Origin: a virus
Taxonomy: Duplodnaviria > Caudoviricetes
DNA length: 64,000 nucleotides
Virus record (IMG/VR): IMGVR_UViG_3300033150_000846
Coordinates: 276 to 64,275 of that record
Strand: one strand, 5' to 3'
Below, in pieces: positions 1,784 to 60,127 of the stretch. The position numbers were made by a program, and so were the translations under genes. The notes beneath the pieces are model-generated. The model was not told where the DNA came from and made no database searches. It was given only the letters and a program-made list of their open reading frames with translations. How positions within the stretch are numbered: position 1 is the first letter of the stretch; the number at the start of each line of letters is the position of its first letter.

Positions 1784-2400
1784 TGCGACTCGCCAAACTA
1801 GCATGTATCGCAACAATCTTTGCGGCCACCGGCCTGGCTTGTGAACCAACACTCAAGCCCTGCTTGGTTACCGCCAACTTCTCGACAAACCTTGAAGGTG
1901 ACCCAGATACACGCCCTTCCACGTGGGGCATGGCCAAGGCTCAGACATGGACGCTACAATTCACCCCGCTGCCAAACACCCGAGTGGAGATTCTTGAGGT
2001 CTCAGGTGACTTAGTGGCATGGCCGACTACAGGGGGCCTTGGCCCGGCAATTGTGGAGCCAGGCCGTTTTGCCGGAGTGCTGTTTGGGCTACAGACGACT
2101 GAGCCTGAAGGCTCAACCCGTGCTTTCCCAGCTTCCGACAACACTCTGGTCTACATTCAGGACGCGGTAGCCCAGGAGCCCAGACGTGCCTCTTTCGACC
2201 GTCACATCAGGCGTACTCTGCCTGCCGACAACAAAATCATCGTGAAGGTCGCAGTCTGGCTCAACGACACCGGCTACAAAATCCACATTGAACCAACATT
2301 CACCATCAAGTACCGTTTCGTCCCCGCCAACTACAAGGGGTGGGGAGAGTTTGGCAGCGGGGTTCTAGAGTTTCGACCGGCCTCGGAAAAGGAGGAATAA
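1783..2400 (+). CDS. Secreted or lipoprotein-like hypothetical protein
   Basis: MRLAKLACIATIFAATGLAC resembles a signal peptide or lipobox; beta-rich body. Confidence 0.6.
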   Translation: MRLAKLACIATIFAATGLACEPTLKPCLVTANFSTNLEGDPDTRPSTWGMAKAQTWTLQFTPLPNTRVEILEVSGDLVAWPTTGGLGPAIVEPGRFAGVLFGLQTTEPEGSTRAFPASDNTLVYIQDAVAQEPRRASFDRHIRRTLPADNKIIVKVAVWLNDTGYKIHIEPTFTIKYRFVPANYKGWGEFGSGVLEFRPASEKEE

Positions 2401-2610
2401 ATGATGGATAAGCTTCTTAAGGTATTGTCTCCCGGCAAGACAGTCGGGATGAACACGACACTTGGGGTTGTTTTGTACTGGATTTCTCAGATGGAGTTCC
2501 AGACGGAAGTGGGGCGGATTGTCCAGATGGTCGTGATGGCGGCTACTGTTGTCGGTATTGCCGTGGTCACGAACCTTGCACATCAGGCTCCAAGTCCTCG
2601 TAAGAAATGA
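2401..2610 (+). CDS. Small two-TM membrane protein (holin candidate)
   Basis: Two hydrophobic segments, basic C-terminus, Met-Met start and AGGAGG SD. Confidence 0.5.
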   Translation: MMDKLLKVLSPGKTVGMNTTLGVVLYWISQMEFQTEVGRIVQMVVMAATVVGIAVVTNLAHQAPSPRKK

Positions 2611-2936
2611 CTAAGCAGACAAGGGTTGAGAGACAGAAGAAAGCTATTGCAGACGCTGATCTTGTCACTAACTTGCTGGAGCACGCTGGCTGGGTGGATG
2701 TAATCAAGCCCAGGCTGGAGGCCAAGGTGAATGAGCTTAGGACTTTGCTCCCGCAACTTGTGCTGAGCTCGGGTCTGCAGGTGACTACAGGAGCTACGAA
2801 GGAGCAAGTAGCTGCTAGAATTCAAGGTATTACCGAGGTCATTAAGCTGATTGAGAATATCCTTCGGGATGGAGCTACGGCTTTTGAGGAGCTTAATGCC
2901 TTTGGTAAGCTAAGTACGCAGGAGAAGCCCAGATAG
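2607..2936 (+). CDS. Hypothetical head-module protein
   Basis: Small helical ORF immediately upstream of the scaffold gene. Confidence 0.55.
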   Translation: MTKQTRVERQKKAIADADLVTNLLEHAGWVDVIKPRLEAKVNELRTLLPQLVLSSGLQVTTGATKEQVAARIQGITEVIKLIENILRDGATAFEELNAFGKLSTQEKPR

Positions 2937-6633: not shown

Positions 6634-8089
6634 GCTGCCGCCGTGGGTAGTTTACCATAGTGCTGCATACATGGGAGGTAAGGGGCTGCTGTACGGTACC
6701 GGCCCCATATACAACAGGGAGGCTCGTACCAAACAGAACTTTGCCTTTCCGGTAGAGAACGGCGATTTTTCACTATTTGCAAATGACAGATTCGACTTTG
6801 TTTTACTGGGCAGTGTTGGTGCTGATATCACTGAGTCTGTTGTATCTGAAGCCGCCGGACACTTACGTGTAGGCGGCAACTTAATTCTTGCTCTGTCCTT
6901 CTCGGACCCTTCCTCGGCCCTCCCCCAAATCAATGAAGTTGTCTCCAAGTGTGGGTACTGGCTCAAGAAAGACCAGTTCGTCAAAGACGGCATAGTCTAC
7001 GCTATTTTTAAGCGGCTTCGGGGGCGGCTTGGGCTGAAGCAGAACCCCGCTGCCAAACTCCCTCGGGCGTGTGTGAGCCGGTTGGGGGCCATTGGGGACA
7101 TGATTATGGTCACTCCTTTGCTCAGGTGCTTGAAGGAGGACGGCTACTATGTGACCGTCAATGGCTCAACGGCGAGCATTCCGGTGCTGTTCAACAATCC
7201 CAATGTGGACAACATAGTTCCGCAGGTTCGCAACATTGTGCCTAACCGGGAGCTTGGGCAGTACTGGGCGTATTGGGCCAAGAAATACGATAAGTACGTG
7301 AATCTTTCTGAGAGTATTGAGGGGACACTGTTGAAGGTCGAGGGTAGACGAGACTTCTACACAACTAAAGAGTGGCGGCACAAGATGTGCAATGTGAACT
7401 ACTATGATGCTAGTTTGGCAGCGGGGTCATATGGGCATGTGAGGGGAAGGAACGGGGAGATTTACTTGACGGCCAAGGAGCGCAGGTTTGCTAAGCGGAT
7501 GTTGCCGGACGATACGTTTAATATTGTGGTGTCCTTGACCGGTACTAGCCATCACAAGTATAATCCTTTGCTTGGTCCTATTCTTGGGCGATACTTGAAT
7601 GAGCACCCTGAGACGAGGGTTTTCATGGTTGGGGACGAGCGAGCCAGCCGGGTGACGTTTGTGCATTCACAGGCGATTGATCTTACGGGGAAGACAACGT
7701 TGAGGGAGGTGTTTGCTCTGGTGGAGCGGGCGGATCTGGTTATTGGGCCGGAGACGGCGCTGACAAACGCGGCTGCTTGTTTTGACACGCCTGAGATTGT
7801 CTTTTTGTCTCACAGTACGCGGGAGAACTTGACGAAGTACTGGAAAAATTGCGTGGCACTGGAGCCGGAAGGGTGTCCTTGTTACCCGTGCCACCAGCTT
7901 CATTATAGTGAGGATAGTTGTCCGTTGGCCAATATTCAAGATGAGAAAGGGGAGGTGTTGGCTACCGGTCCGCTGTGTGCTATGGGAAGCGTGTCAGCCG
8001 AGAGAATAGTCAAGGCCATCGACGATTTGAGGGGTGACTGTGCTATAATGAAGAGGCATGGCACTACAATGGACGCGGAGCGAACTTAG
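6599..8089 (+). CDS. GT9 (heptosyltransferase-like) glycosyltransferase with a degenerate methyltransferase-like N-terminal domain
   Basis: RLGAIGDMIMVTPLLRCLK and DLTGKTTLREVFALVERADLVIGPETALTNAAACFDTP. The N-terminal FANDRFDFV...LRVGGNLIL resembles class I SAM methyltransferase strands. Confidence 0.85.
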   Translation: MSSPLTKKKSSRLPPWVVYHSAAYMGGKGLLYGTGPIYNREARTKQNFAFPVENGDFSLFANDRFDFVLLGSVGADITESVVSEAAGHLRVGGNLILALSFSDPSSALPQINEVVSKCGYWLKKDQFVKDGIVYAIFKRLRGRLGLKQNPAAKLPRACVSRLGAIGDMIMVTPLLRCLKEDGYYVTVNGSTASIPVLFNNPNVDNIVPQVRNIVPNRELGQYWAYWAKKYDKYVNLSESIEGTLLKVEGRRDFYTTKEWRHKMCNVNYYDASLAAGSYGHVRGRNGEIYLTAKERRFAKRMLPDDTFNIVVSLTGTSHHKYNPLLGPILGRYLNEHPETRVFMVGDERASRVTFVHSQAIDLTGKTTLREVFALVERADLVIGPETALTNAAACFDTPEIVFLSHSTRENLTKYWKNCVALEPEGCPCYPCHQLHYSEDSCPLANIQDEKGEVLATGPLCAMGSVSAERIVKAIDDLRGDCAIMKRHGTTMDAERT

Positions 8090-12600: not shown

Positions 12601-13596
12601 TTTAAGCATTACAATACGTGGTTTCATCTTCGGCCACAGCCGGACAGATGGACCAACTATGTAACAGACAAAATTTCCGGAAACGAGCAAAGATTCGAGA
12701 GGCACGAGTGTATTCTAGATCCTCTTGGGAACACTGTGTACGGGACGGCTTACGTTGATGGGACGGCAGTGAGCACGTTCACTTACACCGGCACTGGGCA
12801 AACCTCTTTTGTGAATGCGTTTCCTGCTGACACGTATGGGCGCACCAGCTATACTATTTACAATGTGGCTAGTGGCCGCTTCAAACACTACAAGACATGG
12901 GTAGAGGGTCAGCCTGAGCCGGACAGGGTGGACAAACACACGGAAATCATTACTCTGCCCACAAAATCAAACCTAAAGACTTGGCTGGCCGAGCTCAACC
13001 CCCTCAACCAAACTGTGACAGGAACAGCCTACCTGGATGGCACAGCCATAAGCACAGCAACGTTTGGCAGCGGGGTTCGTAAGGTTTTCAGTGTTGCTCT
13101 TGATTTGGATGGTTTGCACACTGTTCAGGCAGGCCATGCTGTAGAAATCAGGTATAATTGTGCTTCGGGCGTGTTTAAGCACTACAAGACTCGGCTGGAG
13201 GCTGAAGAGAAGCCCTTTGGTAAGAAACAATGGGCAATGACGTACAAGAAGGTAGGTGGGGCGACCTCCCTTGACCTTTTGCGGTATTGGCACTTGGATG
13301 CTGAAGCGGAGGGAACGGCTACTATTACCAGTGTGTGGGACGTTGATGGTACTAGTACGCACACACAGACGCACACCTTGACAGGGAGAGAGCGTCTGTC
13401 GGACATGAGCTTTCCTCCTGGAGTCAGGGCACGCATTTGTCAGGTTAGATTGTGGAGCTCGGAGAACTTTGAAGTGTACAAGAGTGAGCTCGACATTATG
13501 CGGGTTGGTGTGAAGGGCTTTAGTCGAGTGACTGTCCCTGGTACGCCGGTTGAGCAGAAAGTTTTGGTGGGTGAGGAGCGTTTGATCAATGGGTAG
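9649..13596 (+). CDS. Tail tube or stabilisation protein (tail tubular B / P22 gp10-like, extended); start may be GTG 9661
   Basis: Large beta-rich protein after the adaptors, with propeller-like segments and several C-terminal repeats (FPxETYG...FKHY..W...PEP). Confidence 0.65.
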   Translation: MELGVKREQHLVVFNKVNSRAAEHLLAEDEVATATNVDFAMGAGGARVRRGSWKRYTAGTGTVTQLYRHYDLGLGSDSRVFAISGKDLYQGYTGTFSLVQSGGLNDANGITSYGNRVYVSLTPGGSSVAVDTDGSAVPWPPGAPSGAPTIGSSTLTPLTVVSTMTVEEGTDGGATSGTSTGTTDATTLRLEFRHVPGTSDLSVNGTHTIGDYGIHGVSLKISDPAKVVKVSQDYSIGDATFTNFWHTEMDVLLEYKSLADPETLVDSLLQSDTGTAVNADQREAMVSIARDAVRVPVSHVAAAKDSWTVWKTMRPDFKLIGEGGSWSNIGAVRIVIEARDLVTVELTDFNISGAEDYPLNDANVGYAYWETWVEKDSDGNIISESAPSPVSGRVKMQYAQATATFTDTAPATPYTHRILYAQGGYMQQPYAVATVTGTATTAVHNITDVTAISRGRPLDTGVLSALYNNITVASKPFLNRIFLGHINELMWTVPGKPNTILTGNSATVSHKGDPIRAIIPWASTLVIVNRDTIYEMHGNVFEGRGQDWVLHKTAARRGSLAFNSAIETPYGIPLVGFDGLYFYIPGQGIEQSIGWITEALKDAWEGVEITDPGTLKGGRIPVINSYIFNAVTAFGDERLYLAVPTGTDQYPKTLFVIDFKSQRVWWYTYPFSIYSLFWDAINKEVIAGSSNGAILKLEGASQDTTPDGTVTPISWLVKTKKWTTPSDLVLENVQVEYEGTGVAVHAYIDGTTTMTLGTLTSAERTWDTLPFHGTVGNSLQFKFSGLRNFDGDCCVYGVSWEALVEPPRVKYYKTDYFNNGNDGEKRWIADLTKIEIPGTSTVTKVSYVDGVAKMTSTFTGPTSGQHVFVNNFPNETYGNIAYGTLTGNGEFKVWDTQMAAENEPLPVTSWKTDVTSLEENIVDAFDCDINPGGGTVYGTCFVDNTAVSTGTFTGTKRQSYTWKLPVETYGRTVYVLYSVASGGTFKHYNTWFHLRPQPDRWTNYVTDKISGNEQRFERHECILDPLGNTVYGTAYVDGTAVSTFTYTGTGQTSFVNAFPADTYGRTSYTIYNVASGRFKHYKTWVEGQPEPDRVDKHTEIITLPTKSNLKTWLAELNPLNQTVTGTAYLDGTAISTATFGSGVRKVFSVALDLDGLHTVQAGHAVEIRYNCASGVFKHYKTRLEAEEKPFGKKQWAMTYKKVGGATSLDLLRYWHLDAEAEGTATITSVWDVDGTSTHTQTHTLTGRERLSDMSFPPGVRARICQVRLWSSENFEVYKSELDIMRVGVKGFSRVTVPGTPVEQKVLVGEERLING

Positions 13597-17539: not shown

Positions 17540-20500
17540 ATGCCGAAGCCTGAAACCCCGCCGCCAAACTCCTCATTCATTGATGAACTGCTCAGTACAG
17601 TGAAGCAGGTTCCTACCTTCTTGGGGCAGCTCCCACCTTTTGCACCAACTGAGCCGACAGCCGCTGACAAGGAGCTTCTCTCCTACTTGTCTTATTGGAA
17701 CAATGTGGTGACTGAGAAGCCCAAGAGAATGGTCAATGAGCTTGGGAAAATCTTCTTTCACACCGGTGAGGACGCCGAGACCAAGCTCAACCGGGACGGC
17801 TCTCTGAAAGGTGAGGACATTCTTGGCAAGCCCCCGGAGACAGTGTACTTTTCTGATGATATGATTGCCGAGTTTCGGAAGAAGGGCTACGATGTCTCTG
17901 ACTTGCCGGTGGAGCCAAGGGCTTTAAGGGCTGCGTGGGAGGCGGCCAAGCATCCCATTGAAACGGGGGTTAAGGGGCTTTTGACCCCTGTGGCGGACTT
18001 TGCGGGGATGGTATGGAAGATGGCCGAGCCTGACTATGGGCCAAACGCCCCTTTGTATGAGAAGGTCTTTAAGGACCTTACCAAGGTTTACGCTTTGGCT
18101 TATGGGCTGACGTTGAAGCCTCTAGTTGACAACATTAAGGCGACCAAGGACCCGGACGATCCGTACTCTCACATTAACATTGAACAGGGGTTGTGGAAGA
18201 CCGTCGAAGACTTTCTTCCACTTCGGGAGGTGTTGGCTTTGGCGACCGGACGAAACCCGGAGACCAAGGAACTGCTCACTCCGAAGGAGTGGGGAGCCAA
18301 CCTTACAACAGGCCTACTCAAGTTTTGGATGGCGAAGGCTGGAACTGATTGGGCCAGAGGGAAATGGCGGGCCGACATTGAAGTGACACACCCGGCTCTT
18401 CTGGATATTCCTAAGTCGAGGTTCTTGGAAGAGCAGCAAGCCCTTGAATTGGAGGCCGCCAAGAAGGGTATAGCGTCTGGAAAACGTGCCGCTACAAGGG
18501 AACTGAAGAAGGCTGCTGAAAAAGGGCAAAAGACTGTTGCTGAGGCAGGGGCGACTTTGGACGAGGCAATGGACGTAATTGACCTCAAGACTCCTGTGGA
18601 CAAAGCTAAGCTGAGTCCGGAAGTTCGGAAGATCGCCGACCAGGTTGAGGATGCAGGGGCCGGTCCTTTGACAGTAGAGGACTTCGTTGATGTTTACAAG
18701 GAGCTAGGGCTTGAGCCTAGTACAATACCGGACCTTACACCAGCCCAACTCTACAAGATCTTCAATGAGCTGGGGAACAGCCTCAGTGATTTGTACAAGA
18801 CGAATCCTGACAAGTTCCAGGAGACTTTGTTCAATGTTGCGATGAAGCAAGCGAAAGCTAAGAAGCTTGCCCAGGCTGCCGGTAAACCAACTGGCCTCAC
18901 AAAGACCAACATATTTGCTGATCTTGTTCGGTCGGAGGCTCTTGGACCGAGGGCGATTGCTGATATTTTTAAGCGGAAAACTTTGGACACTGGCATGTCT
19001 CCGGAGGCGGTCGCCCGAGAAGCTCAGGCAATTGCAGCCTTGATTGAGGACAGTCTGAGTAAGAGCGGGGCTAGACTGAATGCTATTTCAAAGGCTACGC
19101 TGGAGGGGCTGGAAGAGGTTTTGGTTGGGAACCCCGAGGCTCTTGAGGCTCTTGGAGGGCTGAAAGAGGCGCTGAGCCGTAACTACAAGTACATGGGGAC
19201 TTTCCAGAAGATAAACTACTTCTACAGAAAGTTTGGCCTGAAGTGGACTCGTGGTGGAGCTACTTCCCAGCCCGCTACTGTTGCCCGTAACGTCAGTGTT
19301 CAAGGCGGGGCTTATCTTGTGGGCACATGGGAAGACTTCTTGGGTGATTTGCGAATATGGACCAAGAGCATGAAGGATGCTGTAACCCGAGGAGCAAGAC
19401 CCCTGTCTCCGTCAGAGGCTTTTCATCAAACCCTTTTTGACATCACCAATATCATTCATCAGTTACATGGGGCAAGTGTCAAGGCCTACGGTTTGGGTAA
19501 GTTCGCCCTTACCAAGATGGGCAAGAAGACAGGGGAGAACACCTATGAGTACATAGTGAAGAACCCTAAGAACTTCAAACCCCTTTACAATGTCTATGAC
19601 AAGATCATGGAGGCTCTTCCCGTAGAGGAGGCTGCCAAGCTGGAGCACACGTTCTCAATGGAGTTTGAACCAGCCAGTGTCATGACTAAGGCTTACTGGA
19701 AGAACTTCATTAAGAAAGTCACTGTCTTGAACAGAGACCCAACTTACGGCCCTATGTCCAGGCTCGCCAAGCAGGGAGCTACCATCATGGACACGATAGT
19801 GGACCTTGGTGGCATAGGAAACATGACGCAAGAACTCTTTTGGCGCAGGGCATTCTTTGTGCGGGCCGTTGAAAAATATGCACGTGAAAGGGGCTACCTT
19901 GGGGCTGAGGATTATTGGCAAGCACTGAAGGCAGGACGTACTGACTCACGCACCACCATGATTGGCGGGTTCCGCAATGCTGAAGAGGCTTTGGCTAGAC
20001 TCAAGAAGCTCAAGGAAGAAGATATTCCGCAAATGGCTGATGAGACAGTGACCAAGATGGCTCAAAGCTTCAAGAAGCGAATGAAGGACCCTTACAAGCT
20101 TGGGAACCGGATTCTCGAAGCCCGAAAAAACATAATTGATGACTTGAATAAGAAGGCGGACGAAGCCATAAGGCTGTTGGAAGCGAAAGTCAACCCGAAC
20201 GAGGCCCTTGGAGTGTTGCCCGACAGTCTTGCTAAAAGGCTTGGAGGGGAAGTTGAAACCGACATGACTGTGATTAGTAGGGCCAGACATGAAGCGCATG
20301 TGAACACGTTTGCGGCAACTCCTCCTCAACACACTTTTGCCGGGCATGTTTTGCAAGCCTACAGAACACTTCCCCTTGCAGGAGTAGGGCCTTGGTTTCC
20401 TCGCTTTCTGTCCAACTTGTACACCTGGATGAATGAGCGCAATCCTTTGGCTTACAGCCAGTTCGCCAAAACACGGATTGCACAAGAGCTGGACGCTTTT

Positions 20501-21909: not shown

Positions 21910-22426
21910 ACACCTCCTCTTGTATCCGCAGGTCATACAAGAGTGGATCACTAATATAGAGGCCAAGAAGGACAACGTAGAGGAGCCAAGCAAGAGCCCA
22001 AAGCCCCTGTTTACTGATCCGGAGGGAGAAGCTCTAATGGCCAACCTCCGCAAACTCTTCTTGGCCAGGGGAATCAAGGACATGACATCCCAGGAAGTTT
22101 TCTCTCTCCAGCCCTCTAGAGAAAAGATGTCAATGGAGGAGATGTTTGGCAGCGGGGTCATCCTCGACAAAGTTCGGGGGAAGATTCAGCGGTCTTTCAG
22201 CAACGACGAAATTCGGGCTGGAATCTCCAGGGCTGTGGGTAGCAAAGCTTTGCGAAGAGACCTGTACACGGTTCTGCCGAAAGCAAAAGGAAAGCTTCCG
22301 GAGCGGTTTCCGGACAGAACCAATCTTGGGGCATTGCGTGACGGAGCCGAGAGGGTTTTGGACTATCTTGTGGCCTCGAAAAAAGTGAGAAAAAAGTCGC
22401 CCAGGCCCTTGACAAACTTCCCCTAG
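21899..22426 (+). CDS. Hypothetical basic protein
   Basis: Co-directional ORF that contains a motif copy and ends inside the sRNA promoter. Confidence 0.55.
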   Translation: MHVKHLLLYPQVIQEWITNIEAKKDNVEEPSKSPKPLFTDPEGEALMANLRKLFLARGIKDMTSQEVFSLQPSREKMSMEEMFGSGVILDKVRGKIQRSFSNDEIRAGISRAVGSKALRRDLYTVLPKAKGKLPERFPDRTNLGALRDGAERVLDYLVASKKVRKKSPRPLTNFP

Positions 22427-22443: not shown

Positions 22444-22504
22444 AACCCCGCTGCCAAACACAGAGTGGTTGGGATGTAGAACCGGCATCCCAGCCACTCT
22501 TTTT
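22444..22504 (+). ncRNA. Predicted ~60-nt small RNA: 5' single-stranded motif, 15-bp hairpin and U tail
   Basis: AACCCCGCTGCCAAACAC, then AGAGTGGTTGGGATG(22462-76)/CATCCCAGCCACTCT(22486-500), then TTTT. Confidence 0.7.
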
Positions 22505-24140: not shown

Positions 24141-24977
24141 TTATTGGCATTCAATTCCTTTTTCGTTGAAGGCAAACGATAGTTGCTTGCTTGGAGGCAG
24201 TTCGTCAGTTGGGCAGAGCTCGACATTGGAGGTTTGAGACACCTCAGGAGCAGCAGTACTGAGTACTACGGGAGCACTTCCTGCACTGCTTGGAGTTTGG
24301 CAGCGGGGTTCAAAGCTGAGGACGATGGGGAGGATTTTGTTGGCAGTGTCTGCTGAGGTTTCGGTTCGTGGATCGGTAGTAACTGTGAAGTCACAGTAGT
24401 AGGGGTGAAGAGAGTTTTCGGAAGGGTGGCGGGCTTGCTTTCCGGTAAGGAAACGAACTGGAGCAGGATTGTGTACCCAAAAGATGCTGCCGTTGTGACG
24501 GCGGATTGCCTCAACTTCGTTGGGGAAGCGGACATCGTCAATGAGGATGAACCGATTCTTAACAGGGGGTAGGAAGAGTCGGCTTTTTGTGAAGAAGGCA
24601 GTTACCCAGTAGTTTGGGTCTTGGGCTCGGCGGTAAGAGGTGCCCCACCATTGAAGAAGCCAACGGACAAGAGGGGCAGGAGGCTTGATGTAGAGTAGCT
24701 CCGTTATGTCTTTCTTTCTCAAGGTGAGGTAGTACTGACCAATGGCGGCGGCTATGGTTTTAGCTTTGAGAGATGGAGGAGAGTTAAGGGGTCTTCCGAA
24801 GTAGAGGTCTCTTAGCTCGTCACGGACGGCGTCGGCAAAGCTACGAACACAAGTCGAGGTTTGTGGGCGCTCCTTTAGGCGACGGGCTAAAGCATGGGCA
24901 ATGGAGGTTTTACCGGCTCCGGCTTTACCTGCAAAGCCAACAAGGATTGGAGGCTTTTGTAAGGAGTTAGGTTGCAT
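24141..24977 (-). CDS. Deoxynucleoside monophosphate kinase
   Basis: GFAGKAGAGKT, SFADAVR, LLQWWGT, IDDVRFPNE and HPSE motifs. Confidence 0.85.
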   Translation of the reverse strand: MQPNSLQKPPILVGFAGKAGAGKTSIAHALARRLKERPQTSTCVRSFADAVRDELRDLYFGRPLNSPPSLKAKTIAAAIGQYYLTLRKKDITELLYIKPPAPLVRWLLQWWGTSYRRAQDPNYWVTAFFTKSRLFLPPVKNRFILIDDVRFPNEVEAIRRHNGSIFWVHNPAPVRFLTGKQARHPSENSLHPYYCDFTVTTDPRTETSADTANKILPIVLSFEPRCQTPSSAGSAPVVLSTAAPEVSQTSNVELCPTDELPPSKQLSFAFNEKGIECQ

Positions 24978-28352: not shown

Positions 28353-31091
28353 TTACATTCTTATAGTGTGGATGGTTTGGCAGTCTCCCCATGACCGGCC
28401 CTTCCCGCTGTAGCCTACTTCTACTCCCAGCCTGAAGCCTTCAAGTTCACGCCAAGGTTGTGTAGCTACCGCAATGAGAGCTTTTGCTGCTTCTTCATGG
28501 GATTCGTCCGGACCTTGTACAACCAGCTCATCGTGGACTTGGATGCTAAGGTACCAGCCTTCTGGCAAGACTGCCGTTGTTGCTAAACGTAGTTGTTCAA
28601 TTTCTTCTGAAAAACGCTCGGGGTGGAGAGCAATCATTATTCTGAGGACTATGTCTGCGAGGGAGGAGGCAGGCAAGAAAGCCAGCGCCTTGTTTTCCAT
28701 GCGGGCCATGTTGAACCATCGTTTGCGGCCAAACGGGTTGACTAGGAAACCTTGTCTTTGGGCAAGTTTGATGGTTCGTTCTTGCCAAGCAGCAGTCTCG
28801 GGGTTGAGTTCAGTTGACCAAATGTGAATCATCCTCTTTACATCTTGGGCGGTTATCGAGGTGTAGCCTTCGTTGTGGATATACTCAAGGGTCTTCTTCC
28901 ACTTGAGGCCGTAGTTCCTACCGTGGTTCACGATTTTGCCTAGTTTGTACAGGTGAGAGTTCTCTCCGTGTTTGCGGACAGGAACACCAAAGGCCCGAGT
29001 AGCAATGTCTTCATGTTCGTTGTAGCCAGGAGTGTGGAGGCGCTTGAGCCTGTCTGTGTCGTTAGCTAGAAAGGCGGTCAGCATGTTCTCCCCCTGGATT
29101 ATGTCCGCCGTGATGAAACTGAAGGATGGGTCATCGGGGACGAACAATTTGCGAATTTCTTTTGGTTGGTTTTGGATGTTGGGGTCTATGCCTCGACGTT
29201 GGCCGGAACAAGAGAGACGGCCTTCACTCGTGCCATGGACCTTGAGGGAGAAAAAGACTCTGTCTACTTCTGTAAGGCCGTTCTTTGCAAATGTGTTGAG
29301 GAGAGTAGCCGTCTTCTTGATTTGGTCGAGGATGATGAATTCAGGGGCTTTGGTAGCCCAAAGTGTCCTGGCCGACTTGTCGGTTGCTATCTTGCCCGAA
29401 GGTGTAAGCTTCGCTTTCAGCCCTTTTGCCTCAATGTACTTGCGCAACTCAACCGGGCTATTCCAAGGACGTACAACTTTCTCAACATCTTCTGTAATGA
29501 GAGTTGCCTTCTTCATGACCCCAGGCTCTATCATCCGTCCACAGACTGGGCAGGGTTTGGCAGCGGGGTTCAAAAATGTGATTGGAGTGGGGTCATGGGC
29601 AGTTTTGTCTTTGACGAAGCCTTTACAGATTTTTGTTTTGGCTTTCCAGGGAGCCCGGTCTTCAGGGATGCGCGTGAACTTCTTGTGTTTTTCTGTGTAG
29701 GGGCGGAGTTCGGGAGGGAGCTTGGCTTCCAGGGAGGCAATTTGGTTTGTGTACTCTTCCCTGATTTTGACGAGGGCGGTCTTGTCTATTTTGAGGCCCC
29801 TGTTGTTCATGTCTCGGCATATAAAGGCTGCCGGTATCGACACGTTTGTGTAGACGTGGCGCATGTTGTAGTGGTCTAAGAGGGTTTGGAGAGGTTTTGA
29901 AATTTGAAGGGAAGCGTCAGTGTCTCTGGCGTTGTAGAGAGCAAAGGCTTCTTGGGTAGAGGTACAGCCGCCGTAGCCGCCCAGTTCTCTTGGGATTGCG
30001 CTGGGTTGGTTCCAAGTTTTGTGTTGGGAAGAGAAGACGATGTTTCCTTTTTCGTCTTTGTGGGAAGAGGAGCCGCCCTTCCAAGCTACCTTGTTTGTAA
30101 ATACACTGGCGACGAAAGCGAGAGAGTGGGGGAAGTCGGGCTGAACTAAATGCTGGATGAGCATTGTGTCGATGTACTTGGCTTTTACGTCCCATCCTAG
30201 TGCGTTGAAGTAGAGACTGTCAGCCCCGACTATGTTGTGGCCGATGAGAGCTTCTGCGTTTTCGAATATGCGTTTTAGTTCTTGGATGTAGGGCTCGACG
30301 AAGGGGACTACAATGGCAGTGTAAGGTTTGGCGGACAAACCGCAGAGGGTTATTTCGCCTGTGTTGGGGTCCCACTCAAAGTCGAAAGCGAACTTTTTGG
30401 GAGAGAAATTCTTTACTTCTTCTATGGTTGGGGCAAGGTTGTAGTTCTCTGGGGGAACTGCTGGGTACCTTCTGAAGTCTACCGTGGCACACACCGAGAA
30501 AAGTTTAGAGTCACGAGCATGAGCGGCGGGGTGAATGGTAGGGATTACTAGGGGCTTGGAGGAGTGTAAAGAGCCACAGTCCAGGGGAAGAGGGGAACCT
30601 CTCCAAGTGTGAATGCCTTCTCGCTTTGTTAGGGCTTTCAGGGCTTTGTTGCCTAAAGCAATTATGCGTTGCCATTTTTGGGTCTTGAGGTATGGGAGCA
30701 GGTGATGGTTTCGGCAATACTTTAGAGCCGCGTAGGCATCTTCCTTGGGTGTGAAGGTCCAGTCAGGATCACCGGGAAAAATGTTCTTTGGCGGGCGGCA
30801 CCCAATTACGTTAATGATATGGAAGATAGATCTGTCTAGGCCTGCATTTCGTAGAAGGGAGTTTAACCAGCGGCCTGCCCCTCCAACAAAAGGTTGCCCA
30901 GCATAAACTTCGTCTTCACCGGCAGCTTCACCTACTAAGAGCTCTGGCCTAGTTCCTTTGTGGGGTGGGATGTAGCCTAGTGTGACGTGGGCTATTGGGC
31001 ACTTTGCACAGAAGGAAGGCCTGTTCTTGTTTAGTTCGCTTCTTACTGAGGGGTCGAAGAAGGGGGCTAGCGCCTTGTCAACTTTTGGCAT
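28353..31091 (-). CDS. polA: Family A DNA polymerase with N-terminal family-4 uracil-DNA glycosylase-like domain and 3'-5' exonuclease
   Basis: UDG: CAKCP, GEAAGEDE..GQPFVG.AG, CRPP.N, HPA. Exonuclease: FDFE, GHN..D, YNARD. Polymerase: GRLS, NIQNQP, TADIIQGE, KIVNHGRNYG, QVHDEL. Confidence 0.93.
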   Translation of the reverse strand: MPKVDKALAPFFDPSVRSELNKNRPSFCAKCPIAHVTLGYIPPHKGTRPELLVGEAAGEDEVYAGQPFVGGAGRWLNSLLRNAGLDRSIFHIINVIGCRPPKNIFPGDPDWTFTPKEDAYAALKYCRNHHLLPYLKTQKWQRIIALGNKALKALTKREGIHTWRGSPLPLDCGSLHSSKPLVIPTIHPAAHARDSKLFSVCATVDFRRYPAVPPENYNLAPTIEEVKNFSPKKFAFDFEWDPNTGEITLCGLSAKPYTAIVVPFVEPYIQELKRIFENAEALIGHNIVGADSLYFNALGWDVKAKYIDTMLIQHLVQPDFPHSLAFVASVFTNKVAWKGGSSSHKDEKGNIVFSSQHKTWNQPSAIPRELGGYGGCTSTQEAFALYNARDTDASLQISKPLQTLLDHYNMRHVYTNVSIPAAFICRDMNNRGLKIDKTALVKIREEYTNQIASLEAKLPPELRPYTEKHKKFTRIPEDRAPWKAKTKICKGFVKDKTAHDPTPITFLNPAAKPCPVCGRMIEPGVMKKATLITEDVEKVVRPWNSPVELRKYIEAKGLKAKLTPSGKIATDKSARTLWATKAPEFIILDQIKKTATLLNTFAKNGLTEVDRVFFSLKVHGTSEGRLSCSGQRRGIDPNIQNQPKEIRKLFVPDDPSFSFITADIIQGENMLTAFLANDTDRLKRLHTPGYNEHEDIATRAFGVPVRKHGENSHLYKLGKIVNHGRNYGLKWKKTLEYIHNEGYTSITAQDVKRMIHIWSTELNPETAAWQERTIKLAQRQGFLVNPFGRKRWFNMARMENKALAFLPASSLADIVLRIMIALHPERFSEEIEQLRLATTAVLPEGWYLSIQVHDELVVQGPDESHEEAAKALIAVATQPWRELEGFRLGVEVGYSGKGRSWGDCQTIHTIRM

Positions 31092-34896: not shown

Positions 34897-35913
34897 CTAG
34901 GAGAGTCCCATGTAGGCAGTTGGGTCAACTGTAACGAATTCAGGGTGTGAAGACGGAATAACAGCATCCTGAGTATTGTGAAGCTCAAAGTACTGGCAAG
35001 TCTGTCTCCACGTAGAGCAGTTGGGCCGCCATGGTGGAACACTCCTAATACCCTCTTTCATCATTGTCATCATTGTGTCGGCTACCTTGATAATTTCCGG
35101 TAGAGATTGGTTGAGGAGTCTCTCTTGGGTCCTGGTGACTGCGAACCTGTAGAAGTTGCACTTGGGGGCGGACTTTGGTTCTTTTACTGGAGCAAAGTCT
35201 TGTTCATGTCCACACAATTGGCACTTGTACTTGCCCTTCTGAGTAATTGTGTAAGCGTCGAAAGGCTGAATAACCCTGCAATTTTTGCAGGTTCGCTTTG
35301 GTTTGTGAATGTTGGGCTTTTCAAGAACATTCACCAGCAATCCTTGGATAGGCCCGATCTTGTGACTAAGGGCTAGGAGTTGAAAGTCAGCTTGCATGTT
35401 CGACTGCCACCCCTTCATGTAAAGGGGCATTGGGACATAACTGGATTTTGTCTTGTGCTCTTTGATCCACCATCCTTTAGTGAGAAGTGTCGTATCGCCC
35501 TGCCAACCCGTAGGCATTTCCACGTCTTCCTCCACATAGAAGTACCTATCAACCTTAGCAAGCAACGCTAAGTCCTTGGTAATAGGCCGGATAACCGGCT
35601 CCTCCACAGAGAATTGTTTGGCAGCGGGGTCATTAGTGTAGTTGCTGGTATACTGGTCTAACAGAAGGTGTGCCATAAACAGGGCATCCTTAGTTGGATC
35701 AAACTCCTTTATGACCTCTTCGCTTATCTCGTAATTGCCGGTAGCATAGAAATTTTCTAGCCCACTGTGGACTAAGGCTCCTATGCATAAAGGGTCGTCT
35801 CGCTGGCCAAGATGTCTCCGTACACGTTTGGTAACATAGTTCTCGTACCAGTGCCACGGACATATCCCGGTAAACTGGTAGTATTGTGAGTGGTCAATAA
35901 TGAACTGGGTCAT
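34897..35913 (-). CDS. PD-(D/E)XK nuclease (Cas4/RecB-like) with zinc-ribbon insertion
   Basis: CP..W, G.LVH, KVD, EHKT and Q motifs; C-terminal C..C; CKNC/CQLC insertion. Confidence 0.8.
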   Translation of the reverse strand: MTQFIIDHSQYYQFTGICPWHWYENYVTKRVRRHLGQRDDPLCIGALVHSGLENFYATGNYEISEEVIKEFDPTKDALFMAHLLLDQYTSNYTNDPAAKQFSVEEPVIRPITKDLALLAKVDRYFYVEEDVEMPTGWQGDTTLLTKGWWIKEHKTKSSYVPMPLYMKGWQSNMQADFQLLALSHKIGPIQGLLVNVLEKPNIHKPKRTCKNCRVIQPFDAYTITQKGKYKCQLCGHEQDFAPVKEPKSAPKCNFYRFAVTRTQERLLNQSLPEIIKVADTMMTMMKEGIRSVPPWRPNCSTWRQTCQYFELHNTQDAVIPSSHPEFVTVDPTAYMGLS

Positions 35914-37921: not shown

Positions 37922-38936
37922 TTGCTTTCTCCTTTTTCGTTTTTCCTTCAGTGTTCTCTTGCATGATGACTGCAAGGAGAGCACCGTTCAACAACTCGAT
38001 GCATTCAGGGCAGAGAACATCAGTGTTGCCCTTTGTGGGCTTGTGGCACCTAATGCACTGTGTTACGGTTTTGGAAACCCCGCTGCCAAACAGCTGAGCT
38101 ATAGGGGGATTGACTGGGGAGGCGTAGGGACCTCTGTAGTAGCGCTGGTAAGGAAGTTCGTAAGAATCGTCGTCTTGAAAAGTGTGGATTGCGGAAGCTG
38201 CTCGTTTCCAAATTCCTCGTTCGCCAAAAGGGAGGTCAGCGATGGGAACCAAGTTTTGTGTGTCAGCGTCGAGGTCCACCGCATAAAGAACTTTAGGATC
38301 GATTGTGTAAATGCTGGGCTCTTCTTCTCCGGTTGCAAACCTGTAGGCTGTGGTCAATGCTTCCATGGTTGAGGCGTAAGCTGTGCCGCCTTCTGGAAGA
38401 TCGACAAAGTACAAAGCCTCGTGGTTGAAGCGGAAGAAAATCATGTAAGGCTTTGGGGTGGTTACGAGGGCGGCACAGGAGCCCCAGCCTCGAATTTCCC
38501 CAACGTCCTTTTTGAGTAGGAGGTAGTCCCATATGATTTGGGAGTCCACTTCGTACTTCAGGGAGCTTTTTGTGAGGAGTTCTTTGAAGTTGGAGATGAC
38601 GCCGTTGTGAGTACCGGCGACCTTCACGAAACTGCCGTCCTCTTCTTTGCGACCAAAGAGGAAGGGGTGAGCGTTTTCTTTTGTTACATCACCGTGAGAG
38701 GCTGCCCTAGTGTGGGCGATGAAGGGGGATTTTGCTTTTGCAGGTTTGCTCAGCAGCTTCTTGGTGAAGAAGGCGGAGCTTATTCTGCCTACGTCCTTCT
38801 GGATTTTGATGCCGTCTTTGTCGAAGTAGGCCAGCCCGTAGCTGTCAGTTCCACGGGCTTCCATAGCATTGGCGAGGAACGGGGCCATAATGGCTGCTTG
38901 TTTGTTGAATTCAGTGAATCCGAAAATTCCACACAT
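37890..38936 (-). CDS. Class II (Ntn) glutamine amidotransferase
   Basis: MCGIFG start, RGTDSYG, HTRAASHG, NAHPF, HNGVISN and VDS motifs. Confidence 0.92.
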   Translation of the reverse strand: MCGIFGFTEFNKQAAIMAPFLANAMEARGTDSYGLAYFDKDGIKIQKDVGRISSAFFTKKLLSKPAKAKSPFIAHTRAASHGDVTKENAHPFLFGRKEEDGSFVKVAGTHNGVISNFKELLTKSSLKYEVDSQIIWDYLLLKKDVGEIRGWGSCAALVTTPKPYMIFFRFNHEALYFVDLPEGGTAYASTMEALTTAYRFATGEEEPSIYTIDPKVLYAVDLDADTQNLVPIADLPFGERGIWKRAASAIHTFQDDDSYELPYQRYYRGPYASPVNPPIAQLFGSGVSKTVTQCIRCHKPTKGNTDVLCPECIELLNGALLAVIMQENTEGKTKKEKANERAVYTAGN

Positions 38937-40691: not shown

Positions 40692-41452
40692 TTTTCCTCG
40701 TTGATTCTGGTTTCAAGAAACTCGGCTGTCTCTTCGCCTAGAGATTGAAGGCTTTCGCTTGGGTTTTGTAGGAGTAGTGTTTGGAGGAAGCGCCGCCTTG
40801 TGTGAGGAGACTTCAGGGCGAAAGCGGAGTTGACCTCCAAGACAATGAACTCTCCTGAAGGAAGTTGTAGAATGTCTACAGCTCCAAAGTCATAACCGAG
40901 GGCGTCTACAGCTTTTCGAGCAAGAGGGCGGATTCCTTTGGGAGGCTTCTCAGTGAAGGAAATTACCCATCCTAGCCGCCTTGAGCGGATGTTTGGCAGC
41001 GGGGTTTCCTCTAGGGAGACTTTTTTGCCGACAGCGAAAGTTCGGGCTTTTGGAAGGTAAGAAGAGCTTGCACAGAAGACTCTCCACTCAGCGGTTACTT
41101 CGCTGATCCAGGCTGTCCAATAGTCGGCAGTAAGCCACTTTTCTGAGATAGTGCGTGGTGGTGTTGGGAAGTAGATGAAGCGGCCTTGTGAATGGTTGTT
41201 ACGGCGACCTACTACTAGTTGACCTTCGCAAAGGCCTTGTGTTGCTTCCTGTAGTGTAGTGTAGAAAGTTGGAACGGGAATTTCGTGGTCTTTGAGAAGG
41301 GAAAGTTGGTTGAGGCCGTAGAGTTTTGGTTGACCTCCTATGGAGTTGGGGCGTTCTATGCCCCAAGCGAGGTCTTGGTCTGAGGGGATTGGGGCTAGGG
41401 TGTTTCGTAGCCAACGTACAGTTGGCCACTTCGAGTTGCCGTAGACTTTCAT
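40688..41452 (-). CDS. ATP-grasp (RimK-like) ligase
   Basis: EWRV, ALGYDFGAVDI and VLEVNSA motifs. Confidence 0.88.
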   Translation of the reverse strand: MKVYGNSKWPTVRWLRNTLAPIPSDQDLAWGIERPNSIGGQPKLYGLNQLSLLKDHEIPVPTFYTTLQEATQGLCEGQLVVGRRNNHSQGRFIYFPTPPRTISEKWLTADYWTAWISEVTAEWRVFCASSSYLPKARTFAVGKKVSLEETPLPNIRSRRLGWVISFTEKPPKGIRPLARKAVDALGYDFGAVDILQLPSGEFIVLEVNSAFALKSPHTRRRFLQTLLLQNPSESLQSLGEETAEFLETRINEEN

Positions 41453-49580: not shown

Positions 49581-49689
49581 CGATAAGAAAAAGGTTGGGG
49601 GCGGGCAATCAAAGCGCGTCTGTTTAGGGGCAGGAGGGGCGTTATACCCGCTTTCGCCCCATCCCTACCTTTCCAAACCTTCCCCCGCT

Positions 49690-50239
49690 GCCAAACCCTT
49701 TATTTTCACCAACTTAAGGGGGGCTCCCCCTCCCAAAGCCCCCAACCATGTAAAATTTACATAGTCAGCCAAAAAATCCAAAAAAGATTTTCACCCCTCT
49801 ACCTGGCTCTAACAGTCCAATTGTTAGAGCCAGGTGAGCTGCCCCTAACCCCTTTGTTTTCAACAACTTACATTTTACCTGGCTCTAACAAAAATCGGCC
49901 CAAAATGGCCTAACCCCTTCATTTTCAACAACTTCCCCCGATTACCTGGCTCTAACAATCGCCTCTACGCAAACGAACAAAAACAAAACTCCCTCCTTAT
50001 ACGCGAAAGCATTTTTTCTTTTTATATAAATACAATACTATACACCACTATATTTTTAAGCCCATATTTGGGTAAACCCCATTGTTAGAGCCAGGTCGGC
50101 CCAAAAAATCGCCCTAACTCCTTTCCCTTCAACAACTTACACCACTTCAGGCCCAAAAAATTGTTAGAGCCAGGTACTTGCAAACTCTTCATTCTAAAGG
50201 ACTTACAAAATCACTGTTAGAGCCAGGTTAGAGCCAGGT
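49690..50239. repeat. Putative origin or packaging region: inverted 14-bp repeats and IHF-like sites around an AT-rich core
   Basis: ACCTGGCTCTAACA at 49801, 49877 and 49944; reverse complement at 49822, 50083, 50162, 50215 and (13 bp) 50227; interleaved TTCAACAACTT elements. Confidence 0.8.
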
Positions 50240-52380: not shown

Positions 52381-52715
52381 ACAAAGTGTGGGGATGCGAG
52401 CAAATCGTCATAAACCGCGACTTTTGCTTCAAGATCATGTACGTGTTGCCCCATGCCCGCTCTTCAATTCACAAGCACGCAAAGAAGGACGAGCTCTTCT
52501 ACGTCCTGAAAGGCCCAATACTCTTCGAGGTCGGCAAAAACATTCGCCGTCGTCGCGAAATTGTGGCCCACGAAGGAACAATCATTCACGTTCCCCCGAA
52601 CACCTGGCACCGATTTACTAACTTTGGCAGCGGGGTTACACAATTTTTAGAAGCTTCTACACACGATGATCCAAACGACTCAAGACGAGCAACGAAGAGT
52701 ACTCGCAATTTCTGA
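52338..52715 (+). CDS. Cupin (sugar isomerase-like)
   Basis: KVWGCE, SIHKHAKKDELFYVLKG, PPNTWHRF and EASTHDD motifs. Confidence 0.85.
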   Translation: MGKYTPQPEEAKLVNKVWGCEQIVINRDFCFKIMYVLPHARSSIHKHAKKDELFYVLKGPILFEVGKNIRRRREIVAHEGTIIHVPPNTWHRFTNFGSGVTQFLEASTHDDPNDSRRATKSTRNF

Positions 52716-57466: not shown

Positions 57467-57499
57467 GCCAAAAGTTTTCTCAAACGGGAAAAGAGCAAA

Positions 57500-60127
57500 A
57501 TGAAGAAACTTTTACTAGCACTCATCATGGCAGGAGCCCTGGCTTTCGGCCAAGGAGTTGTCTCCCCGAGAATGCTCAAGCAAGGCGGAGCAGCTTCCGG
57601 CCAGTGCTTGCAATGGGACGGCTCAAAGTGGGCTCCAGCCGCCTGCACAACCTCCGCTGGCTCCGGCACCGAGTACCAATACAACAACAGTGGGAGTTTG
57701 GCAGCGGGGTTACAATGGCACTGTCCGAGCAACATTGTGGGCTTTGGGGGCTGCACCGCGAGTTTTCCAGCACTGAAGCGCTCCGGCACGAGCCTAGAGG
57801 TGCGCCTCGCGGACGACAGTGCTGACACTCTCCTCAAAGCCAGCGTCTTCAATGCCTCGACGGGCTTCCAAGTGAGCGGTGCAGCGACGACCGGAAACTT
57901 TCTTCGAGGCAATGGAACTTACTTTGTGGCCAGTGCGATTCAAGCTGGAGACGTGCCGGACCTCTCTGCTACCTACCAAACTGTCTCCGAGAAGGGCGCC
58001 GCCAATGGCTATGCTTCGCTGAATGCTTCGTCGCTGGTGGTCCAGAACCCGGCCAATGCCACCACTACACCGACCGCGAGCAAAATTCCGATTGCCGATG
58101 CTAGCGGTGATCTCGATGATGGCTGGTTTCCCTCTACGATAACCCGGGACACCGAGATCATCAAGGGTGTTGGCAGCTTGACGACGACGAACGCCATTCC
58201 CAAAGTAACGACCAGTGGAACCCTGGGAGAGGGACTGCTCCGGGACAATGGCACGCTGATCGGCTTTGGCGGCCTAACCTCGTCCTACCCGGCACTGAAG
58301 CGTTCTGGGACTGGGCTTGAAGTCCGTTTGGCGAATGATAGCACTGATGGGTATCTCAAGGCCAGTGTCCTCAATGCCACAACCGGATTTCAGGTTAATG
58401 GTGGTGCAACAACTGGACACTTCCTTCGTGGGGACGGGACCAACTTTGTATCCAGTGCGATTCAAGCTAGTGATTTGCAGGGTCTGAACTACACTTGGAC
58501 TGGTACTCACGACTTCAGTGGGGCTACTTTGGAGATACCCAACAGCACGAGTTTGCCTGGGACGTGCGCTGTTGGTGAAGTCTATGTTGACAGTGACGCT
58601 AGTGCCGGGCAGCGGCTGTATTTGTGTGAGTCTGCCGATACTTGGGTGCTTCAGACGCAGTCTGTTTACAATGTCAAGGCGTTTGGTGCTGTTGGGGACG
58701 GTACCACGGATGATACAGCAGCTATTTTCAGTGCTATCAGTGCTGCTGGTTCCGGGGACACTATCTACTTTCCTCCCGGTACGTACCTAACCTCAGGGTT
58801 TTCTGTGACAGATAAAGCGCTTAGGCTTGTCGGTGCGGGAGTAGAAGCGTCAATAATTAAAGGCAGTGAGGCAACAGGACAGGTTTTTCTGTCTAATGGA
58901 ACCAATATCAGGTCTGAAATTCGTGATCTCACTATAGATGCTGGTGGTAGTGGGATGCATGGTATGGTCTTGAACGGGTTTGGCTATGGATTGATACAGA
59001 ATGTTCGTGTAGTCGATGCATGTGACGGTATCGCTCTAGGTGCAGGAAGCGGCTACTCAACGATCAAGAAAGTGTTAATTCAGGACTCTTCATGTTACGG
59101 TGTCTACATCACTGGAGATTCTACAGGTGAGGTCACATTGGAGGATGTGCGGATAAAGAGCGAGAATGCCGCTACTACAACTACCGCTGGAATATACATA
59201 GATAAGACAACCGTTGTAGATCTAGGAGGTTTCTATCTGCGTGGTGTCCACGTTCTCGGTGTGACCGGGACATGGACTTACGGCCTTTACTACAATTCGT
59301 CTGTTGCAGGTAACTACGGTTTCTTATTCGTAGACAACAGTAACTTTGAATTACTCCCGTTTCCTATCTATATAAAGAACGTGGATCGAGGCTACATAGA
59401 GGGGTCTTGGATTAACTCGTCTGGCTCGGGAAATGATGCCATAACATTGGATGGCTCCGATTTGTTTGTAATTGCCAATAACCTATTTCAGGGAATTGGC
59501 GCTAATGGTATAGCATTGTTGAACGGAGCTCAGAGAGCAACTATTATTGGAAACGACATGAGTGGTATAGGGGGTACTACCTTCCGCTTAGACACTGTCA
59601 CGCCACCAGTAAACTTGAGTTTTGGTCTCAATCGCTTTGGTTCCGGTTCCCTTACCAACGATGTTTCTACCTTGAACTCTGCAATGGAACCTGTCAAAAT
59701 CTCGTCGCTGGAAGTTAGTGGTGGTGACTTCCTGGTGCAGTCCACGGCACCGAGCGTCGATGTAAACGAGACAGATGCAGGGACGGACGAGAAGTACTGG
59801 CGAATCTACGCCAACGGGGGCAAGTTCTACGTCCAAACGGCGAATGACGCCTACACCGCCTTCGCCAACGCGATGTATTTCGACAGATCAGGAAATTCAG
59901 CAACGGAACTTAGAATTATGACCGGACCAAGCAATAGTGACGCAGTGAGGATCAGTTCCTACGGCCTTAAGATCTACGACATGGGAACGAAGCCAGCTTG
60001 TAACTCAACCACTCGTGGTCAAATCTGGCGCGACGAAGGCGGCGCAGGGGTCGCTGACAAGTTAGAAGTATGTGCGAAGAACTCCAGCGACTCCTACGCT
60101 TGGTACCCGCTGGCTTCAATACCATAG
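57500..60127 (+). CDS. Tailspike or fibre-like protein with pectate-lyase-type beta-helix and an N-terminal signal peptide
   Basis: MKKLLLALIMAGALAFGQ; duplicated GFGG..S.PALKRSGT.LEVRLA.DS unit; NVKAFGAVGDGTTDDTAAI...IYFPPGTY. Confidence 0.8.
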   Translation: MKKLLLALIMAGALAFGQGVVSPRMLKQGGAASGQCLQWDGSKWAPAACTTSAGSGTEYQYNNSGSLAAGLQWHCPSNIVGFGGCTASFPALKRSGTSLEVRLADDSADTLLKASVFNASTGFQVSGAATTGNFLRGNGTYFVASAIQAGDVPDLSATYQTVSEKGAANGYASLNASSLVVQNPANATTTPTASKIPIADASGDLDDGWFPSTITRDTEIIKGVGSLTTTNAIPKVTTSGTLGEGLLRDNGTLIGFGGLTSSYPALKRSGTGLEVRLANDSTDGYLKASVLNATTGFQVNGGATTGHFLRGDGTNFVSSAIQASDLQGLNYTWTGTHDFSGATLEIPNSTSLPGTCAVGEVYVDSDASAGQRLYLCESADTWVLQTQSVYNVKAFGAVGDGTTDDTAAIFSAISAAGSGDTIYFPPGTYLTSGFSVTDKALRLVGAGVEASIIKGSEATGQVFLSNGTNIRSEIRDLTIDAGGSGMHGMVLNGFGYGLIQNVRVVDACDGIALGAGSGYSTIKKVLIQDSSCYGVYITGDSTGEVTLEDVRIKSENAATTTTAGIYIDKTTVVDLGGFYLRGVHVLGVTGTWTYGLYYNSSVAGNYGFLFVDNSNFELLPFPIYIKNVDRGYIEGSWINSSGSGNDAITLDGSDLFVIANNLFQGIGANGIALLNGAQRATIIGNDMSGIGGTTFRLDTVTPPVNLSFGLNRFGSGSLTNDVSTLNSAMEPVKISSLEVSGGDFLVQSTAPSVDVNETDAGTDEKYWRIYANGGKFYVQTANDAYTAFANAMYFDRSGNSATELRIMTGPSNSDAVRISSYGLKIYDMGTKPACNSTTRGQIWRDEGGAGVADKLEVCAKNSSDSYAWYPLASIP

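Follow-up and report, generated by a model that had tools for sequence, protein, structure and literature searches.

A selected 15-bp word on both strands of a podophage genome, possibly read by a highly specific nickase or DNA-binding protein

The DNA analysed here, a window of 64,000 nucleotides (bases 276-64275) of the 64,275-base IMG/VR virus record IMGVR_UViG_3300033150_000846 (Duplodnaviria; Caudoviricetes), covers almost the whole of a complete 64.2-kb podophage genome that has a phiEco32-type ligase cluster. It contains sixteen copies of a non-palindromic 15-bp word, GTTTGGCAGCGGGGT, which are dispersed over both strands and mostly buried in coding sequences (Table 1). The word is real, selected and lineage-specific, and its copies show an enzyme-like exactness. 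We tentatively favor the reading that it is the target of a phage-encoded, highly specific nickase, or of a comparably specific DNA-binding protein, in a system that would resemble the programmed nick motifs of other phages but use both strands. That the word is read by a protein, that this protein is encoded by the phage and that a nick is the outcome are what we infer from the pattern of the copies.

The sequence-only reading, made by eye, had listed 13 exact 15-mers, two copies with a terminal mismatch and one with an internal mismatch, and a pattern count agrees with this list. In exact form, the 13-bp core, TTTGGCAGCGGGG, is present at 15 places in the window, 10 on the + strand and 5 on the - strand, and 100 dinucleotide-preserving shuffles contain none (mean 0.00, maximum 0), so that its occurrence is indeed far above chance, as had been claimed. 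When up to two mismatches are allowed, the matches number 16, the sole extra one being 17556(-), which reads TTTGGCGGCGGGG and brings the strand split to 10 + and 6 -. Since the shuffles expect 2.46 such matches, this single addition indicates that there are no degenerate copies beyond the family, which removes the earlier concern that some might have been missed. The whole 64,275-base record has the same 15 exact copies, and therefore none lies in the bases outside the window. The full 15-mer (G-TTTGGCAGCGGGG-T) is exact in 13 copies; the core at 52623(+) has C at position -1 and that at 49683(-) has G at position +13. Information content is 1.66-2.0 bits at positions -1 to +13 and at most 0.7 bits outside, which defines a conserved block of 15 positions with sharp edges and about 29 bits in total, and the alignment of the copies reveals no conserved element, promoter-like or other, flanking the motif. 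The proposed check of k-mer over-representation gives the same picture: the family is by far the commonest repeated 10- to 15-mer in the window, and the one other family there is ACCTGGCTCTAAC, whose 8 copies are found only at 49.8-50.24 kb.

Fourteen copies lie in 12 genes, where they use five of the six reading frames and are divided equally between sense (7) and antisense (7), and the other two (22446 and 49683) are intergenic. The peptides encoded at the coding copies are FGSG (five times), LAAG (twice), TPLPN or TPPPN (three times), NPAAK (three times) and PRCQ (once), all in agreement with the earlier list; the frames used thus encode peptides rich in Gly, Ser, Ala and Pro. The orientation of the motif is independent of transcription and, judged by eye, also of any assumed direction of replication.

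Conservation was assessed with a strain set of five contigs from two other samples, 75-98% identical in nucleotide sequence over the aligned pieces, which reach 10 of the 16 sites and fully span nine; a search of IMG/VR with the protein of 1372 amino acids (gene 17540-21658) yielded no further strain contigs. All 13 fully spanned orthologous copies are unchanged, with 0/195 differences in the motif vs 130/2594 (5.0%) in the flanks of 100 nucleotides on either side, a difference with P about 4e-5 if the copies are treated as independent, which they are only partly. The motif is under purifying selection. Moreover, this invariance, the use of five frames in both coding orientations and the location in variable protein segments uphold the proposal that selection is on the nucleotides and not on the protein. 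At eight alignable sites, the proteins of nine relatives align through the motif without gaps, and the motif falls where these proteins vary among themselves; therefore the sites arose by substitution at tolerant positions, not by insertion.

As judged from its portal protein, the phage belongs to a large family with relatives in metagenomes. Ten IMG/VR records with 44-52% portal identity, seven of them 82-100% complete and nine fetched whole, were searched for the motif. At up to two mismatches they contain it at chance level only (0 to 5 matches per record, like a reversed-pattern control), and the nine whole relatives have no comparable dispersed 11- or 13-mer repeat. In a search of IMG/VR with the true 15-mer, which returned 61 stretches, the five strains were the only multi-copy contigs. 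The motif is thus confined to this lineage. A closer relative, represented by proteins only, is 73% identical in the portal, 70% in the polymerase and 71% in the GT9 protein. At all three sites that it covers it has NPTTK, LAVG and NPTAK, where the phage studied here has NPAAK, LAAG and NPAAK. Each site has a replacement that requires T instead of C at core position 9 (Ala to Thr at two sites, Ala to Val at the third); one replacement in this relative also forces C-to-T at core position 6, and the rest of each peptide is largely kept. The sister lineage therefore probably carries a one-base variant, TTTGGCAGTGGGG, at the same positions. The variant 15-mer has 52 matches in IMG/VR, all single, and this search doubles as a control for that with the true motif. 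Such a switch resembles that between TACTGTGAC in phage tf and TACTATGAC in LUZ24, which occur at similar positions according to an excerpt of the tf study (PMC3517423).

How might such a word be used? The existence of programmed nicks in phage DNA has been recognized for about 50 years; what they do is described as still obscure (PMC11780129, excerpt). In phage tf, 14 nicks occur in TACT/RTGMC, only 17 sites lie within one substitution, and the word of relatives is one base different at similar positions (PMC3517423, excerpt). In phage Rembedalsseter, 13 nicks occur at WACTRTGAC, in which 60 related phages are enriched, and both genic and intergenic sites, on either coding strand, occur in this group (PMC11780129, excerpt). 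By analogy, GTTTGGCAGCGGGGT would be recognized by a highly sequence-specific protein that would work on the physical phage chromosome, during its packaging, ejection or replication or for self-marking, rather than on gene expression. In favor of this reading we count the exactness of the copies and their density, the purifying selection, the independence of transcription, the origin of the sites by substitution, the restriction to this lineage, the probable one-base switch in the sister lineage, the contig ends inside the copy at 52623 and the fairly even spread of the sites. Such a reader would most likely be encoded by this phage lineage, and its most likely activity would be site-specific single-strand nicking of progeny DNA; the system would then be the equivalent, on both strands, of the programmed nick motifs known from T5, phiKMV-like phages and tf/Bruynoghevirus. 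A fuller version of the idea, which we consider rather unlikely, is that the phage possesses its own chromosome-marking system: a reader of about 29 bits, either a new long-site nickase or a guide-assisted protein, would mark or nick either strand of the DNA at intervals of about 5 kb; the reader would co-evolve with its word, with the one-base switch in the sister lineage as an instance; and the packaging-side copy would double as the chromosome cut site.

This last copy (52622-52636) ends 30 nucleotides upstream of an open reading frame (ORF) at 52666 with a weak terminase match. Two strain contigs, G003 (L192+L193) and G005 (L195), one per sample, both end at 52635, two bases before the end of the copy, and none of the five strain contigs contains the 2.7 kb to the left (49936-52634). 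A third strain contig, G002, ends at 49935; the next bases, CCCCG, are the reverse complement of the CGGGG end of the motif, and this contig end also lies in the region matching the ACCTGGCTCTAAC cluster. On its own, the shared word is much too short to cause an assembly to break. The ends at 52635, which would place a break between core bases 12 and 13, may represent a physical genome end, and the gap at 49936-52634 may reflect a physical end, hypervariability of the segment or a repeat whose coverage differs. The linear records of two distant relatives (G007 and G012) end in the region matching 49.4-50.3 kb, not at the cupin-terminase junction. The only two public sequencing runs found with relatives (word share 0.18 and 0.06) are both available as assembled contigs; 59 and 19 of these, all short, of low depth and from related strains, could be placed on 42000-61900.

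Which protein could be the reader? The lineage-specific genes include those for a LAGLIDADG endonuclease, an Rnl-type ligase, a metallophosphatase-like exonuclease, a deoxynucleoside monophosphate (dNMP)-kinase-like protein, a SLOG protein and two Cas_VVA1548-domain proteins, in addition to many ORFs with no match. One of the lineage-specific ORFs, 23239-23559, has a weak match to HTH_17, a helix-turn-helix (HTH) family, below the Pfam cut-off. An Atlas search with ORF 41449-42276 returned low-overlap matches only (121-126 of 256 features in common), and a single-sequence fold of ORF 23573-24226 was unusable (pLDDT, the predicted local distance difference test score, 36.7).

Several points weigh against a nickase and, more generally, against the reading favored here. 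No nickase, HUH, GIY-YIG or clear HTH protein was found among the lineage-specific ORFs in PHROGs, Pfam (E up to 0.5) or NCBIfam. The only clear site-specific nuclease is the single-domain LAGLIDADG homing endonuclease (4294-4845); single-domain enzymes of this kind work as homodimers on near-palindromic sites, and it fits poorly as the reader of a motif that is not palindromic. The one-base switch in the sister lineage was deduced from protein sequences, not from DNA. As for the contig ends at 52635, they may also be due to a strain mixture with differences on the left side of that base. They coincide with only one of the 10 sites reached by strain contigs, and the chance of one such coincidence is estimated at about 0.04 (about 10 contig ends and 240 motif bases in 64 kb). 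In the sequencing runs, one contig (X1 record 4) bridges the site at 52623, although assembled contigs are uninformative on nicks. Finally, every published nick motif described in the excerpts (tf, Rembedalsseter, T5 and phiKMV) is one-stranded (PMC3517423, PMC11780129), whereas the copies here are split 10 + to 6 -, and the nicks of the published systems have been demonstrated, whereas this one is known from its sequence alone. The nick-site analogy drawn earlier therefore stands in part: it is the closest in site number, exactness and behavior in the lineage, and it fails on the one-strand rule.

The distribution of the copies along the genome bears on what else the word might be. The 16 sites are more evenly spaced than expected by chance (coefficient of variation of the gaps, 0.63, P=0.04; largest gap, 8.7 kb, P=0.04), and merging three tight pairs, a step chosen post hoc, gives 13 loci with a coefficient of 0.41 (P=0.001). 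The six minus-strand copies are never adjacent in circular order, so that orientation changes 12 times, the maximum (permutation P=0.043). Both the fairly even spread and this alternation, together with the asymmetry of the 15-bp site and its many copies, would suit a phage DNA-binding protein that does not cut, namely a genome-wide regulator, a silencer or a condensation or packaging factor, and the HTH_17 match in ORF 23239-23559, though below cut-off, could be set beside them. The sites would then resemble the asymmetric operators of P1 C1 or the stoperators of L5, minus the link to promoters. We give this alternative a small chance. The orientation is independent of transcription and 14 of 16 sites are within genes; operator families are degenerate, whereas the copies here are exact; no integrase or clear repressor was found in the 72 ORFs scanned, and no conserved promoter-like element accompanies the motif. 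The contig ends inside the copy at 52623 would also be left unexplained. For the first four of these reasons, the analogy to L5 stoperators raised in the sequence-only reading is disfavored.

Another possibility is that the phage has acquired a host signal, such as a DNA uptake sequence or a Chi-like self marker, that is read by a host machine. Uptake sequences occur on both strands, in tolerant parts and frames of proteins and at even spacing, and related hosts have dialects that differ by one base; these traits resemble the strand use, placement, spacing and one-base-variant pattern of the word. In addition, phages of Pasteurellaceae do accumulate host uptake sequences, the carriers being temperate phages, while large, probably lytic ones are poor in them (PMC6776037, excerpt). 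The phage analysed here has no integrase match and looks lytic. Known uptake and Chi words have 5-12 bases and many one-mismatch variants, whereas the conserved block here is 15 bp with one variant copy only, and none of the nine whole relatives has a comparable word. With one genome per species, the 15-mer gave single matches only among the matches listed (at least 120 stretches); for the whole of this collection about 1,100 chance matches are estimated, so that most of the collection lies beyond the matches listed. A 17-mer, GTTTGGCAGCGGGGTTC, which includes TTC, gave 77 matches in metagenome contigs, all single and in scattered samples, with no contig or sample enriched. A phage-specific 25-mer beside the site at 52623 gave 0 matches in the same metagenome contigs; therefore the source samples, and the host with them, may be missing from the collection. 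An Atlas search with the ClpB-like ATPase for a clue to the host gave mixed phyla. The test proposed earlier, abundance in the host chromosome, has thus turned up no enriched genome among the matches listed and no enriched metagenome contig, in a collection that perhaps does not hold the source samples. All in all, we regard a host signal as improbable. If it were one, an as yet unknown uptake- or Chi-like system would exist in an uncultured host, and the word would provide a direct route to host assignment.

The least probable alternative, to which we give very little credence, is that the copies are recombination sites or their footprints: crossover sites of a recombinase or invertase, remnants of a mobile element or hotspots at mosaic boundaries. 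The three tight inverted pairs (1964/2350, 7045/7414 and 22145/22446), the two contigs ending inside the copy at 52623 and the CCCCG at the left edge of the missing segment 49936-52634 could be taken in its favor; however, three gaps below 400 bp among 16 random sites are not unusual (P=0.16), so that the pairs were rejected as meaningful, and a crossover in a shared repeat should leave the motif complete at the contig end, where only its last two bases are found. Nor is there an insertion at the eight alignable sites or a recombinase or transposase among the 72 ORFs scanned. A role as mosaic boundary was rejected, as divergence jumps between strains at the motif sites are ordinary (quantiles 0.07-0.90 for 10 site-strain pairs), with no excess.

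Two further candidates were dropped. For a sigma-54 promoter, the TGGCA-N6-TT spacing fits, but GC follows TT in 0 of 16 copies, and, by eye, the copies lie on either strand in genes. The likeness of GCGGGG to clustered regularly interspaced short palindromic repeats (CRISPR) was abandoned because the motif is without a hairpin partner.

Table 1. The sixteen copies of the 15-bp word in the window.
Coordinates	Strand	Match to the 15-mer	Location	Peptide	Remarks
1963..1977	-	exact	antisense in ORF 1783-2400	TPLPN	divergent pair with 2349, 386 bp apart
2349..2363	+	exact	sense in ORF 1783-2400	FGSG	
7044..7058	-	exact	antisense in GT9-domain gene 6599-8089	NPAAK	NPTTK in ~71% identical relative
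7413..7427	+	exact	sense in gene 6599-8089	LAAG	LAVG in ~71% identical relative; divergent pair with 7044, 369 bp
13062..13076	+	exact	sense in virion gene 9649-13596 (1315 amino acids)	FGSG	
17555..17569	-	internal mismatch, A7 to G	antisense, codons 6-10 of gene 17540-21658 (1372 amino acids)	TPPPN	
22144..22158	+	exact	sense in ORF 21899-22426	FGSG	convergent pair with 22445, 301 bp apart
22445..22459	-	exact	intergenic, between ORF 21899-22426 and cell-wall hydrolase ORF 22469-23041		
24295..24309	+	exact	antisense, C-terminal tail of dNMP-kinase-like ORF 24141-24977	PRCQ	
29555..29569	+	exact	antisense in DNA polymerase A gene 28353-31091	NPAAK	NPTAK in ~70% identical relative
35616..35630	+	exact	antisense in exonuclease gene 34897-35913	PAAK	
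38077..38091	-	exact	sense in glutamine amidotransferase gene 37890-39044	FGSG	
40991..41005	+	exact	antisense in gene 40688-41452 (PHROG name ribosomal protein S6 glutaminyl transferase)	TPLPN	
49682..49696	-	exact core, G for T at +13	intergenic, 49.4-50.3 kb control region		
52622..52636	+	exact core, C for G at -1	sense in cupin gene 52338-52715	FGSG	
57696..57710	+	exact	sense in tailspike gene 57500-60127	LAAG	

The genome in which the word is set is organized as follows. The 'direct terminal repeat' of the record is a 114-base overlap of its two ends, so that the circular map measures about 64,161 bases. Genes for virion proteins and a cell-wall hydrolase occupy the + strand from 1 to about 23 kb. 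Those on the - strand from about 23 to 49.4 kb encode DNA polymerase A with a uracil-DNA-glycosylase-like domain, a primase-helicase, a Sak4-like protein and an exonuclease, together with a cluster of glutamine amidotransferase, amidoligase and phiEco32-type COOH-NH2 ligase. From 50.3 kb the + strand is used again, for sugar-nucleotide enzymes, two weak-terminase ORFs, the portal and the tailspike. In the 72 ORFs scanned there is no match to an integrase or repressor family, apart from the sub-threshold HTH_17 match, and the phage is apparently lytic. It has no close cultured phage, the best polymerase match among 50,697 phage records being 24% identical. In homologues of the polymerase (gene 28353-31091), the uracil-DNA-glycosylase-like domain (PF03167) separates the exonuclease domain from the polymerase domain. 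A tRNA-Thr(TGT) gene is present at 61383-61458.

Some parts of this map deserve mention in their own right. The divergent early and late genes are separated by a 0.9-kb intergenic region with eight ACCTGGCTCTAAC copies at 49800-50240, in both orientations and with one pair forming a hairpin, and a CCTAGCC-rich low-complexity stretch is found at 49420-49560; the ACCTGGCTCTAAC cluster is probably an origin, a promoter or an operator cluster. The major capsid gene (3936-5526) is interrupted: residues 1-93 (3936-4226) and the rest (4846-5526) are about 620 bases apart, and the LAGLIDADG homing-endonuclease ORF lies in this interruption. No group I intron was matched there in Rfam, even at E up to 1. 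A single uninterrupted ORF encodes the capsid protein in six of eight relatives with a match, the other two (G010 and G014) being gapped elsewhere in the gene. Amid the packaging and virion genes, 51273-54193 and 6599-8089 contain genes for a PfkB-type sugar kinase, a cupin, a cytidylyltransferase-like protein and a GT9 heptosyltransferase-domain protein, which are present in most or all of the nine relatives; this suggests that the phage family uses a heptose-nucleotide pathway, perhaps for virion glycosylation. ORFs 52666-53640 and 54538-55407 each have a weak match to the terminase large subunit, with other genes in between. Both are present in all nine relatives, and the intervening ORF 53633-54193 has a homologue in seven; possibly two polypeptides make up the terminase; alternatively, one of the two assignments may be wrong. 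The lineage-specific early ORFs 46104-46625 and 46849-47259 match Pfam Cas_VVA1548 (putative CRISPR-associated) at or just above the cut-off.

What would the word mean if the chromosome-marking idea were true? It would represent a new class of phage nick or bookmark system that is not bound to one strand, and thereby a route to the purpose of programmed nicks. The combination of a long, unambiguous word with a short list of lineage-specific genes would make the responsible enzyme easier to find, and the sister lineage with its apparent one-base change would be of further help. In addition, a natural nickase or binder with 15-bp specificity would be a useful reagent.

Several known systems can be compared with this one. 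DNA uptake sequences (USS/DUS, of Pasteurellaceae and Neisseriaceae) share with the word the occurrence on both strands, the tolerant positions, the even spacing and the one-base dialects, and phages of such hosts contain them. Unlike it, they are host-wide, have 9-12 bases and many near-variants, and gather in temperate phages. L5 stoperators and P1 C1 operators are likewise asymmetric sites of 13-17 bp spread across a phage genome for one reader protein; they differ in being oriented with transcription or overlapping promoters, mostly intergenic, degenerate and in temperate phages. Their degeneracy, their link to promoters and their occurrence in temperate phages make such operator-type families a poorer fit than nick motifs. 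In haloarchaeal pleomorphic viruses, a GCCCA motif is reportedly associated with single-strand discontinuities in packaged double-stranded DNA, the kind of interruption envisaged here; it is a five-base word in unrelated archaeal viruses.

The closest published pattern is that of the nick motifs of tf/Bruynoghevirus (TACT/RTGMC, WACTRTGAC), phiKMV-like phages (CGACxxxxxCCTA/CTCCGG) and T5/BF23, as represented in the excerpts cited above. The word here is longer, 15 bp vs 7-9 specified bases in T5 and tf, and its spacing is fairly even, whereas the tf sites are skewed to one half of the genome. The number of sites is similar, 16 in 64 kb, or about 250 per Mb, vs 13-14 in about 46 kb (tf and Rembedalsseter). 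Common to both are a dozen or so exact copies, the rarity of near-variants and a placement independent of genes; relatives in the nick-motif phages keep the positions of their sites with a one-base change of the word, and such a change at kept positions is suggested here by the proteins of the sister lineage.

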